DNA of 64,000 nucleotides from the IMG/VR virus record IMGVR_UViG_3300031417_000382, positions 2,150 to 66,149 of that record. The stretch is one strand, 5' to 3'. Shown here piece after piece: positions 38,792-41,699 of the stretch. Both the position numbers and the translations under genes were made by a program. Below the pieces are notes generated by a model. It was not told where the DNA came from, searched no databases, and saw only the letters and a list, made by a program, of their open reading frames with translations. Position 1 is the first letter of the stretch, and each line of letters begins with the position of its first letter. The stretch is from a virus.

Positions 38792-40657
38792 CTAGGCTGT
38801 AGCTGCTGATTCTTTCTTAGCTTTTCTGCGATCAGAAACGCAGGCGTAGCACGAGCTACCGCGATGCTTCCAGGCACCGTGGATAGGGCAGTCCTTCACA
38901 GTAATAAGAGCAGCGTTGCGGCACTTCACACACTTACCACCCTGGAACTTAGCCTCGCCGTGGATAGCACACTCCTGAAGACTTACACTTCGCTGAGCGT
39001 TACAGCGATTACAGACAGCGCCCTGGTGCTTCGTCAAGCCGTGGGTTGGGCACTCTCTCATGCTTACCGAGCTCGCAGCGTTACAGCTGCTGCAAATCTC
39101 TCCCTGATGCTTCGTAAGCCCGTGGATAGCGCACTCTCGCATGGTCACAGCCTTCTGAGCAGTGCAGAGCGTGCAGGAATCGCCCTTAAAGAGTGCCTCG
39201 CCGTGGACTGTGCAGGTCTTCGTTGCGAACTGAGCCTGAGAGTTGCACTTCATGCAGATAGTGCCCTGGTGAGTCGTCACACCGTGGATAGCACATTCAC
39301 GCTCCGTGACAGAACGCTGAGAGTTACAGCTCGAGCATACGTTGCCCTGATGCTTTACGAAGCCGTGAGTGGGGCAGTCCTTAATACCTACTGGTTTATT
39401 TGCGCTGCAGGTCGCGCAGCTTTCTCCAAAGTGAGTTACCTCTCCATGAATCGAACAGACTTTTGTCGAGATTGTTGCATCTATCTTACAGTTAATGCAG
39501 CGTCCGTCTATGAGCTTTACAACGCCGTGGACACTACATTCACCGTTACTCCATCGAGCTTGCTGTCTGCAAGTTTCGCACTTGTCTGAGCGGAAATGAG
39601 TTTCACCGTGAACAGGACAGTGCTGCGTACTGAAAAGCTTGGCTGAAGAACACTTCATGCAAGATTTACCGTTGAAGACTGTTTCGCCGTGGATAGGACA
39701 ATCTTTGACCTCAAGTCGAGCAACTGAACGGCCTAGCCCTGTACCTCCAGGTTGAGTGTTCTTGCAGTTAGGGTCAGTCTTGTAGCTATCACCAATGAGC
39801 GCGTGTTCAGCCTTAACAACTGACTCCCAATCGCTGTGAAGACTCATCACTGTCTTTAGGAGCGAATCCGCACCTACAGTGCTAATCCACTCTTGGAATT
39901 CCTTGCCACCCGAGCCCATGTAGCCGTCCTTGAGACAATACTCCTCGGTTGGGCTAGCCTGACGCACAGTATGACGGCCGTAGTAATAGCCGTCGTCTTT
40001 GCTTGAAGTGATCTTGTAGGTGTAGAAGCTAATATTCTTGTTGCGCCAGTGATAGACGCGATCACCGGGAGCACTTTCTAGATGGTAGCCGCACTCATCG
40101 ATGAATAGCTCGATGTTACTCTTTCTCGAACCATCCTCACGGAAGACTTCGCCTAGCTTAGTTCCAAGAAGCGTGTCAGGCCCAAACCGAACAGCTTGCT
40201 CCATAGAGAACCAGTCACGACGATTGTTCGTTGCTGCTGCTAGCGTAAGACCATTCCGAACTAGAATGTCCTTCGGTTTAGCGTCTTCGATGAGCGTAAG
40301 GCCTGAGTGTTCGTATACATCTGTTGACTCGCCAGATGTGTCTTGATAAGTGAAAAGGTCCCAAGGCTCCATACTCAGGAAGTGTTTGATTAGCTTGGAA
40401 GCGCCGCCCGGCACTCTTACTTCTGTCTTAAAAGCCATGCGAAAAAGCTCGTTACGGTAACGACGCTGCATACCCGGAGTACGGGGATTACAGAATAGCG
40501 CTACAGCAACGAGCTCATCGTCAAGAAGTAAGCCGTAAGATTTGAGATTCGAGCCTGGTCGAGAGGCACCTTGACGGTGGTGCTCCGAAATAAAGGCTAA
40601 AGCCTGCTCGTTGTCAAGCTCCTGAAGTTTTGTCTTCCTGGCTCCTACGGTACGCAT
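38792..40657 (-). CDS. GNAT-like + GIY-YIG (Seg-type) endonuclease with 11 tandem CxxH-x9-CxxC zinc fingers
   Basis: ELFRMAF...VPGGASKLIKHF...TYQD module; YTYKIT...YYYGRH...DGYMGSG...AEHALI...CKN..PGG; 11 repeats of exactly 27 aa (38840-39700); ATG 40657 with AGGAGG RBS. Confidence 0.8.
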   Translation of the reverse strand: MRTVGARKTKLQELDNEQALAFISEHHRQGASRPGSNLKSYGLLLDDELVAVALFCNPRTPGMQRRYRNELFRMAFKTEVRVPGGASKLIKHFLSMEPWDLFTYQDTSGESTDVYEHSGLTLIEDAKPKDILVRNGLTLAAATNNRRDWFSMEQAVRFGPDTLLGTKLGEVFREDGSRKSNIELFIDECGYHLESAPGDRVYHWRNKNISFYTYKITSSKDDGYYYGRHTVRQASPTEEYCLKDGYMGSGGKEFQEWISTVGADSLLKTVMSLHSDWESVVKAEHALIGDSYKTDPNCKNTQPGGTGLGRSVARLEVKDCPIHGETVFNGKSCMKCSSAKLFSTQHCPVHGETHFRSDKCETCRQQARWSNGECSVHGVVKLIDGRCINCKIDATISTKVCSIHGEVTHFGESCATCSANKPVGIKDCPTHGFVKHQGNVCSSCNSQRSVTERECAIHGVTTHQGTICMKCNSQAQFATKTCTVHGEALFKGDSCTLCTAQKAVTMRECAIHGLTKHQGEICSSCNAASSVSMRECPTHGLTKHQGAVCNRCNAQRSVSLQECAIHGEAKFQGGKCVKCRNAALITVKDCPIHGAWKHRGSSCYACVSDRRKAKKESAATA

Positions 40658-41699
40658 CGACTTCCTCCTGATCAAGAGTCTTAATCATTGTATCAACAGA
40701 AAGCGACTTACCACCCCCGGTGCCCCCGGCGATAAGAGCCATAGGGCTGGTAGTAATCGCTGTTGCCATCTTGATGCCGTACTTCTTAGCCACTCCCGCT
40801 TGTTCACCGGAGAGATCAAAGCCAAGTACGTTCTCAGTCACTCCGGTCTCAGGGTTTGGAAGTTCGAGCCCGTGCTCTACGCCGAGGCCGATCGGGAAGA
40901 AGCTCCAAGCGACTTCCTTAGCTAGGACGTAGTGCTCCATCCACGGAGCCTGGCGCGGTAGTGGCGGCACGGCTGAAATGGTGACGACGCCTTTTTCGAA
41001 GTCCCAGCCTGGGTCGCCGGTCTCTTCGTTATCAGCCGGCACCCATGCGGTCTCTCGCCCGAAGAGCTGGTTGAACTGCTTCATGAAGGCTTCGGTGGCT
41101 TCTTCACCGAAGGTGTCCGGGATGTCGAACTCTACTTTCTGAAGTTTTACGTAGTCGCGCCACTCGGTGACTCGGATAACCGCTTGAGGGTTGTTTTCAT
41201 ACTCTGAGCTTTGTCCTAGCTTGCTTCGAGCCACACTGAACATACGCTTGAAGATCTTCTCTCGCTCGATCATGAGCCGATCAGCGGACTTGTAGCCGTA
41301 GACGAGCGAAGCAATGTAGACGCCGGCAGCTACAAGGAACAGAATGAAGCTTCCAGCAACACCGGCAATAAGCGCTACCACTAATCCGGCACCGCGAAGC
41401 GCCCAGTAGAAGGCACGTCGTGAGATGGGGAAGACCTTAGGCTCTTTCTTCTTGCCGCCGGCGAGTACGAACTGACGCTTGTCGGCTCTCGTAAACTTGA
41501 GTCGCTCTTTCCACTTTGGCCACACTGGAGTCGGCTGTTCGCGGTAGAGCTGGTTCTTGTTCGCTCCGGGCTTCATGAGTTTCTTGTTGAAGCGTCGGTT
41601 TTTGAGCTTCTTGTCACCGAAGCCGAGAGCCCAGAATAGCAGCGGTAATAGTACGATGTAGAAAGCTGCTGCGATGATGAGAGACGTGAGCGGGTTCAT
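40614..41699 (-). CDS. N-terminal half of TcpA/FtsK-like coupling protein ending in an intein-N-like 30-aa tail
   Basis: TM segments, cytoplasmic domain, then MALIAGGTGGGK|SLSVDTMIKTLD...GA stop; no Walker B or downstream ATPase motifs. Confidence 0.7.
   Translation of the reverse strand: MNPLTSLIIAAAFYIVLLPLLFWALGFGDKKLKNRRFNKKLMKPGANKNQLYREQPTPVWPKWKERLKFTRADKRQFVLAGGKKKEPKVFPISRRAFYWALRGAGLVVALIAGVAGSFILFLVAAGVYIASLVYGYKSADRLMIEREKIFKRMFSVARSKLGQSSEYENNPQAVIRVTEWRDYVKLQKVEFDIPDTFGEEATEAFMKQFNQLFGRETAWVPADNEETGDPGWDFEKGVVTISAVPPLPRQAPWMEHYVLAKEVAWSFFPIGLGVEHGLELPNPETGVTENVLGFDLSGEQAGVAKKYGIKMATAITTSPMALIAGGTGGGKSLSVDTMIKTLDQEEVDAYRRSQEDKTSGA

Follow-up and report, generated by a model that had tools for sequence, protein, structure and literature searches.

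Why should the gene of a TcpA/FtsK-like ATPase end in the middle of its own ATP-binding loop, and what supplies the rest? The question is raised by an open reading frame (ORF) on the minus strand of a 64,000-nucleotide stretch of DNA, called here the window, which covers positions 2,150 to 66,149 of the IMG/VR virus record IMGVR_UViG_3300031417_000382. The whole record has 88,999 bp, is flagged 'provirus' and has a CheckV completeness of 31 per cent. An earlier reading of the window, made from its letters alone and called below the original prediction, took the end of this ORF for the N-fragment of an atypically split intein and expected all the rest of the intein on the missing ATPase half. 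Our analysis indicates that the ORF is probably the first of three separately encoded pieces of an intein-invaded TcpA/FtsK-like ATPase; the splicing itself and the partner genes of this genome we infer. Judged from the relatives, by which the case of the window has to be settled, the intein interpretation appears to be right in kind and wrong in architecture.

The main features of the window are given in table 1. The ORF encodes long N-terminal helices and a cytoplasmic domain, reaches ALIAGGTGGGK (the last residue being Lys331), continues with SLSVDTMIKTLDQEEVDAYRRSQEDKTSGA (40617–40706) and stops (40614–40616), just as the original prediction had described it (GGTGGGK, then SLSVDTMIKTL..., stop). 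The long helices are also present in the AlphaFold2 (AF2) model of this N-half, which has a predicted local distance difference test score (pLDDT) of 91 but falls below 50 in the P-loop segment (residues 316–330). The tail of the protein is encoded within a 44–62-base overlap with the next minus-strand ORF (38792–40657 or 40675). That ORF is homing-endonuclease-like and may start at TTG 40675 or ATG 40657; the overlap with a nuclease gene start noted earlier is confirmed.

Table 1. Features of the window relevant to the interrupted ATPase gene and its surroundings.
Feature	Position	Strand	Evidence
N-extein of TcpA/FtsK-like ATPase (membrane helices, cytoplasmic domain, Walker A to Lys331) and putative 30-residue intein N-fragment; proposed piece 1	40614..41699	-	ORF and translation, 361 residues, ATG start
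Walker A G-G-T-G-G-G-K, residues 325–331, without its own Ser/Thr	40707..40727	-	sequence; intact relatives go on GK-S-V-L-Q-R
Putative IntN1: block A strand SLSVDTMIKTL (40674–40706) and 19-residue clade-specific tail, predicted helix	40617..40706	-	motif statistics, 190 clusters
Homing-endonuclease-like gene, 627 residues: GNAT/Mom-like domain, GIY-YIG-like region, zinc-ribbon repeat array	38792..40657	-	phrog_3339 'homing endonuclease' E 1e-22, phrog_314 E 6e-9, Mom-like N-domain
Second, soluble FtsK-like ATPase, 343 residues, own Walker A, no membrane part	11044..12075	+	PF01580; homologues P0290, P0322 in related elements

A gene that stops at such a place could be a pseudogene, i.e. a coupling-protein gene wrecked by insertion of the nuclease or broken by a sequencing frameshift. 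A nuclease-like gene does overlap its 3' end, and the record holds no C-half. However, comparison of the window ORF with its 89 per cent identical relative (locus L003) gives a non-synonymous rate (dN) of 0.069 and a synonymous rate (dS) of 1.15, with a dN/dS of 0.06, and the N-half of the window is under strong purifying selection. In about 190 clusters, with identities of 30–90 per cent, the stop has a corresponding position, the arrangement is common to relatives at 68–91 per cent identity, and no FtsK C-part follows downstream in any frame. We regard a pseudogene as very improbable. The same lack of a downstream C-part led us to reject the idea that a group I intron or a frameshift had broken the gene.

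Homologues of the N-half were obtained from a search of 5.8 billion proteins and from a library-wide phmmer search, which also gave longer relatives. There are more than 160 homologues in the former, nearly all of 330–370 amino acids (aa), and 190 of the 211 family members bearing a Walker A stop 11–60 residues (median 17) past its GK. The 190 tails share the motif [S/A]-L-[S/A]-V-D-T-h-V-x-V-h, with Thr at position 6 in 171 clusters. Position 1 is Ser in 106 clusters, Ala in 82 and Cys in one; because Ala is found in 43 per cent of the members, this residue is not the Ser/Thr of the P-loop. By contrast, the 17 intact relatives (374–1385 aa; P0178, P0188, P0190 and others) always go on after GK with S-[V/I/A]-x-[Q/L]-R-x-I. 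They read GK-SVLQRNI, and the homology with the host protein therefore ends exactly at Lys331, so that alignment to intact relatives, a step the original prediction had proposed, puts the break precisely there.

A different kind of relative, P0184 (516 aa, a complete ORF), reads GK-SLSLDTEVITIGPDG... and continues into a recognizable intein N-part, which is aligned by TIGR01445 (intein N-terminal splicing region) over model positions 2–80, beginning at the residue after Ser1. The original prediction had read SLSVDTMIKT as intein block A, and the 190-cluster motif, the intact relatives and the alignment of P0184 all agree with this. The comparison thus supports the identification of the window tail as a block A fragment of an intein inserted at GK|S in a TcpA/FtsK-like ATPase. 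The opposite view, that SLSVDT... is the ordinary sequence after the Walker A of a naturally short protein, is suggested by a superficial reading as GKS, nothing more. It is refuted by the sequence of the intact relatives, by the 82 clusters with Ala in place of Ser and by P0184, in which the same motif runs into a Hint N-part.

In the clade of the window, an extra tail of 19 residues (..EEVDAYRRS.., 40617–40673, minus strand) is conserved after block A. It is a predicted helix and, in a different frame, runs across the nuclease gene's start. The tail may be part of the intein fold or may be constrained by the nuclease overlap, and the break point may be slightly different in this clade.

The missing part of the ATPase was sought with the C-part of the intact relative P0178 as query, the partner searches being limited by length. 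More than 100 clusters of stand-alone C-halves were found, each of about 300 aa. Their N-terminus reads M-x-I-K-x-I-x-x-I-x-P-x-x-S-x-C-I-S-V-D-S-x-D-K-L-F-A-x-G-...-L-T-H-N, followed by S-V-x-Q-x-N-I-I, and the sequence from this Ser on is exactly what succeeds GK in the intact proteins. The original prediction had expected the P-loop Ser to come from a separately encoded C-half, and in the relatives the C-half indeed opens with an intein C-fragment (IntC) and then Ser. The IntC is 27–69 aa long (median 38, n = 96 C-halves) and ends in T/S-H-N. Its terminal Asn and the following Ser+1 are invariant, its His is nearly so, and position 4 of block F is Cys in 96/96. The C-halves are matched by PF01580 and carry the Walker B and a RAAG motif. 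A tail of 11–30 aa and an IntC of 38 aa are together far too small for a Hint fold, and a further part must therefore be missing. The 100–150-aa Hint C-part that had been predicted for the ATPase half was not seen in the relatives, where the IntC has the short length just given and block B is on a third gene.

This third gene can be recognized in locus L011, where the order is N-half, one inserted ORF and then an ORF which starts right where block A ends and runs on in the manner of the P0184 intein. Downstream of the N-half, at a distance of 1–9 kb (at most about 1 kb in L011, 4.6–8.4 kb elsewhere), such a middle piece is present in all related loci of sufficient length (L005, L009, L010, L011 and L013–L018). 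The family has 106 clusters, all free-standing, of 202–262 aa (about 210). Common motifs are M-x-x-K-x-F-G-D-L-x-x-G-D near the start and H-I-P-x-x-M-Y-E-x-E further along. The block B reads S-G-N-H-L-[W]-Y, with S-G-N-H in 103 of 104 middle pieces, an invariant His and W in 88 of 104. P0184 aligns with the middle pieces over their whole length; it consists of N-extein, block A and middle piece fused, and appears from its sequence to be a two-piece, ancestor-like form.

The middle pieces have mutually consistent, sub-threshold matches to TIGR01445 (positions 41/49–83), PF14890 and PF01079; together with P0184, they score E-values of 1e-3 to 1e-2, below the curated cut-offs. The window ORF alone has zero matches to curated Pfam/NCBIfam intein models. 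We also built a local hidden Markov model (HMM) of 156 positions from four inteins of this gene family, all of them contiguous. This model is tiled, in our description without overlap, by the window tail (residues 332–344, positions 1–13, not significant by itself), the middle pieces (15–127) and the IntC (121–156), P0184 covering positions 2–107.

The AF2 model of the middle piece P0389 has a pLDDT of 90. Among 48,161 PDB representatives, it is best matched by the Npu DnaE split intein (Z 5.1 (VIA), 79 residues, root mean square deviation 2.9), and there are about 20 further inteins or Hint domains in the top 50. The alignments run from intein residue 12–16 to about residue 100, a range corresponding to an intein without its first strand and without IntC. 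Foldseek gave the MchDnaB-1 intein (prob 0.99, 40% identity over 55 columns). The Z-scores being modest, we assign the Hint fold because inteins recur among the matches and the aligned ranges agree; according to the model, the middle piece would be the rest of the intein N-lobe.

Residues ~60–170 of P0389 form a helical insert of about 110 aa with a weak MarR-like winged-helix likeness (Foldseek E ~0.06). On the model, this insert may be a remnant DNA-binding or endonuclease-associated domain.

Several other ORFs were considered as middle pieces. A window ORF of 205 aa (34994–35611; tblastn E 0.85) was rejected by sequence and HMM search, the ORFs just upstream of the C-half in loci L006 and L007 have no Hint features and were also rejected, and neither the 205-aa gene that follows the N-half in L029 nor the 204-aa gene of L141 is related to the middle piece.

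The architecture of the original prediction, in which a short N-fragment (IntN) pairs with a single chain composed of the middle part, the IntC and the ATPase half, has precedents in the short IntN of AceL-TerL, GOS-TerL and VidaL. At the nearby site GG|TGGGKS of the same ATPase family, P0268 has an IntC of about 90 aa with a block-B-like motif, the partner searches were length-limited as stated, and no middle piece is seen for the closest relatives. Against such a two-piece system, the IntC is 27–69 aa long in 96/96 site-c C-halves seen, the C-half found in assemblies of the 89 per cent identical relative has no Hint part ahead of its 38-aa IntC, and complete relatives have the middle piece as a free-standing gene. 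This architecture is accordingly improbable in our view, though less so than a pseudogene.

The three proposed pieces occur together in complete relatives. A single-sequence scan of IMG/VR gave nothing, and the records of the relatives were recovered by an alignment-based scan. Five records of 309–437 kb are rated 100% complete, with direct terminal repeats in one and inverted terminal repeats in two. In each of them, a short-tailed N-half, a free-standing middle piece and a C-half are present once, except that the first two are doubled in G003 owing to an inverted duplication in that record. The distance from N-half to C-half is 84–118 kb in four of the complete records and about 80 kb in the remaining one (G005); it exceeds 100 kb in G001, G002 and G003. 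A sixth record, of 189 kb, has all three pieces, with the halves about 90 kb apart. The middle piece is present in 10/10 IMG/VR records with a complete N-half, and many clusters of N-halves and middle pieces have the same longest contig (683,316; 697,643; 670,635; 436,884; 344,889 bp and others).

The original prediction had placed the ATPase half with its IntC elsewhere on the replicon. This agrees with the relatives, where the C-half is a separate gene about 80–118 kb away; the 89-kb record itself, a fragment, lacks it. For the element of the window, an indication comes from the JGI assembly Ga0308161 and the ENA assembly ERZ27247428, both carrying the 89 per cent identical relative. Each holds, on a contig apart from that of the relative, a C-half whose IntC has 38 aa, reading M-K-L-K-S-I-R-R-I-E-P-K-L-S-R-C-I-S-V-D-...-M-T-H-N|S-V-I-Q-R-N-I, with no Hint part upstream. 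The GC content of that C-half contig is 0.59 and that of the relative 0.56, versus 0.34–0.49 in other lineages. A link between this C-half and the 89 per cent identical relative is suggestive, not proved.

Several observations weigh against the three-piece interpretation. Pieces 2 and 3 are absent from the 88,999-bp record according to a PF01580 scan, tblastn with the C-parts of intact relatives, Hint HMMs and a search for the middle piece; the lack of an ATPase C-half downstream, noted earlier for the window, thus extends to the whole record. Neither the window ORF nor any other part of the 89-kb record contains block B. For the middle piece, the curated Hint and intein HMMs stay under their cut-offs, and the Z of 5.1 obtained in the structure comparison of P0389 is modest; a check with intein HMMs, as originally suggested, finds nothing in the record and gives sub-threshold matches for the middle pieces of relatives and for P0184. 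There is no middle piece on the readable contigs of the closest relatives (L003, L141 and L029), and no middle-piece cluster in our list has the same longest contig as the N-half clusters P0002, P0007, P0008 and P0017. The nearest lineage whose N-half and middle piece occur together, in three assemblies, is P0009/P0389, with 70 per cent identity. The record itself is a fragment, and the full set of pieces in this genome is deduced from relatives, according to which pieces 2 and 3 would lie outside the 89 kb.

The following scheme would account for the three pieces. An intein would have invaded the ATPase gene between the Lys and the Ser of Walker A. Piece 1 would consist of the N-extein and the first intein beta-strand (block A). 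Piece 2, the free-standing protein of about 210 aa, would provide the remaining intein N-lobe with block B (S-G-N-H-L-W) and the helical insert, and piece 3 would carry the 38-aa IntC (block F Cys, T-H-N) on the ATPase C-half, which starts with Ser and contains Walker B and RAAG. The three pieces would come together as a single Hint fold. By class 3 chemistry, the block F Cys would then attack the K|S(A) junction, after which the acyl group would shift to Ser+1 and the terminal Asn would cyclize, giving a restored P-loop, GGTGGGK-SV.QRNI.

Class 3 inteins are defined by Trp N3:12, Cys C2:4 and Thr C1:5 and have no Cys1 (Tori et al. 2010, PMC2807308; Hoffmann et al. 2020, PMC7891396). At the family level, this triad is present as W in 88/104, C in 96/96 and T in 84/96 (the rest Ser), with position 1 being S in 106, A in 82 and C in one; the window encodes position 1 only. 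The family thus fits the class 3 definition, and its motifs point to class 3 chemistry. In a class 3 intein of this kind, the nucleophile would be on piece 3, block B on piece 2 and the scissile bond on piece 1, and the Ser1 of the window need not be catalytic. The original prediction had assumed a Ser1 IntN; because of the Ala1 in 43 per cent of relatives and the W-C-T triad, Ser1 is probably not an essential nucleophile.

The pieces could also assemble without splicing into a non-covalent three-part ATPase, or the N-half could function alone as a membrane protein, the intein remnants serving as docking tags. Broken genes whose halves function without ligation are known in phages, position 1 is Ser or Ala, and the splicing is predicted from the genes. 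Residues useful only in splicing (the terminal Asn, Ser+1, His, the block F Cys in 96/96 and the block B His) are nevertheless kept over more than 100 clusters, and an unligated P-loop would have its chain broken between Lys and Ser. We consider these two possibilities unlikely, although together they are the least improbable of the alternatives. A natural three-component splicing system would have tags of 11–30 aa and 38 aa on the exteins and a separate 'splicing cofactor' of about 210 aa giving block B and most of the Hint fold, the P-loop being complete only when all three genes are expressed. We judge the case for this full system to be evenly balanced.

Three-piece inteins in the searchable literature are synthetic only. 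They include the Ssp DnaB S1-type (Sun, Yang and Liu 2004, as cited in PMC2677866) and two others, Npu DnaE and gp41-1, made in three fragments (bioRxiv 10.1101/2023.01.30.526203); the latter preprint, of 2023, states that the natural inteins found are encoded by one gene or two only. Like the pieces described here, the synthetic systems have an IntN of about 11 residues ending after the first strand of the beta-hairpin, a middle fragment of its own that carries block B, and an IntC that is short. They are, however, laboratory-made, whereas here the genes are natural and conserved, and the middle one has a helical insert of about 110 aa.

Among naturally split inteins, AceL NrdHF (PDB 6zgq) is the sole class 3 case reported (Hoffmann et al. 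2020, PMC7891396). It resembles the present family as a split intein of metagenomic phage-like DNA with an internal block F Cys and no Cys1. It differs in having two pieces and a ribonucleotide-reductase-related host, instead of three pieces, a canonical W-C-T and a TcpA/FtsK-like P-loop. The AceL-TerL, GOS-TerL and VidaL inteins (PDB 6vgw) also have a very short N-fragment on the N-extein, not more than about 40 aa, and the 30 aa of the window fall in this range (11–60 in the family). Their IntC is of about 100 aa or more and includes block B, whereas here it has a median length of 38 aa, block B being carried by a third protein. If the interpretation is true, a three-piece intein would be known from nature for the first time, and a split class 3 intein for the second. 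In elements of 300–700 kb, a TcpA/FtsK-like DNA translocase would depend for its ATP site on three far-apart genes, and the element could time the activity of its own DNA pump. Such a system would show how far inteins can fragment and yet stay under selection, and would offer a ligation tool with two short tags and a separate helper protein, or a three-input logic.

The gene at the break is consistent with the way in which such a system could have arisen. The original prediction had seen a free-standing nuclease gene at this place, and the homing endonuclease matches to phrog_3339 and phrog_314 bear this out. By comparison with the 69 per cent identical relative L141, ATG 40657 is likely to be its start. 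Homologues of 543 and 623 aa hold the same place in L003 and L141, and the gene overlaps the N-half tail in L141 as it does in the window; the arrangement is therefore old. A homing-endonuclease-like gene directly follows the N-half in several lineages: GIY-YIG-like in the window, L003 and L141, HNH in L005, two genes in L009, and also in L010, the genes downstream in L005, L009 and L010 being of HNH or phrog_3339 type. The gene-breaking model of Dassa et al. 2009 (PMC2677866) fits, with a break within the intein N-part followed by dispersal of the pieces. The fractured genes described there likewise have a homing endonuclease at the break. They have both halves in one locus, unlike the present case, where the C-half is 80 to ~118 kb away in six records and the intein is broken twice. 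FtsK-like hosts are not named among the fractured genes in that paper.

The assignment of the host protein rests on its intact relative. Compared with solved structures, P0178 gives TcpA of pCW3 as the best match (6o1z, E 3e-14), with FtsK next (2e-10), and the TcpA/FtsK label of the original prediction is a fair one. Foldseek of the N-half model (N-terminal 320 residues) gave no significant match, TcpA appearing weakly (E ~0.3). Taken together, the pieces possess the Walker A, Walker B, RAAG and N-terminal membrane anchor of a TcpA/FtsK-type ATPase. They share with TcpA of pCW3 (PDB 6o1w to 6o1z) and FtsK the N-terminal membrane anchor, Walker A and B, and the RAAG, which is in the C-half. 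They differ from these in that the gene is in pieces. A role in conjugation, or as a 'switch', is speculation for this ATPase.

The same ATPase family (P0044–P0122, P0268–P0278, P0236–P0327) has at least three further intein sites. They are a contiguous Cys1 mini-intein at TTSPM|C, seven residues before Walker A; an atypically split intein at GG|TGGGKS, with an IntC of about 90 aa; and a split or contiguous intein at GAK|ALSENT, after Walker B. The ATPase is therefore divided into four or more pieces in some genomes. In addition, the DNA polymerase III alpha gene adjoining the C-half gene (1307–6027 in L006; 1–5285 in L007 and L008) is split and has Hint/intein domains.

There is a T2SSE-type ATPase near the N-half of the window, together with a weak TrbL/VirB6 match. 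All of G001, G002, G004 and G005 (309–420 kb) encode a 400-aa AAA_10 (VirB4/TraC-type) ATPase. These four genomes are rated 100% complete viruses and have no match to the Pfam HK97 capsid or Terminase_6N/6C models; the elements may be giant phages or plasmid-like, and the record of the window is filed in IMG/VR as a virus. By tblastn, the N-half has no match in the phage collection or in the PLSDB plasmids. A scan of GTDB genomes gave no relative either, and sequenced species therefore do not commonly carry the element as a prophage.

In the whole 88,999-bp record, PF01580 matches the N-half ORF and the soluble FtsK-like gene of table 1 only. The latter was considered as the missing half and rejected, as it is a paralogue with its own Walker A. 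It lies within a GC-rich island (0.57 versus ~0.48 around).

The 627-aa nuclease-like protein at the break has a long zinc-ribbon array with repeats of C-x-x-H-G...C-x-x-C. By eye, two more nuclease-like genes can be seen on the minus strand of the window, at 7708–8442 and 13138–14334, with a T5orf172/GIY-YIG-like motif and with zinc-ribbon repeats followed by a Vsr/DUF559-like C-terminus. Their sequences suggest that the genome is rich in genes of the homing endonuclease type.

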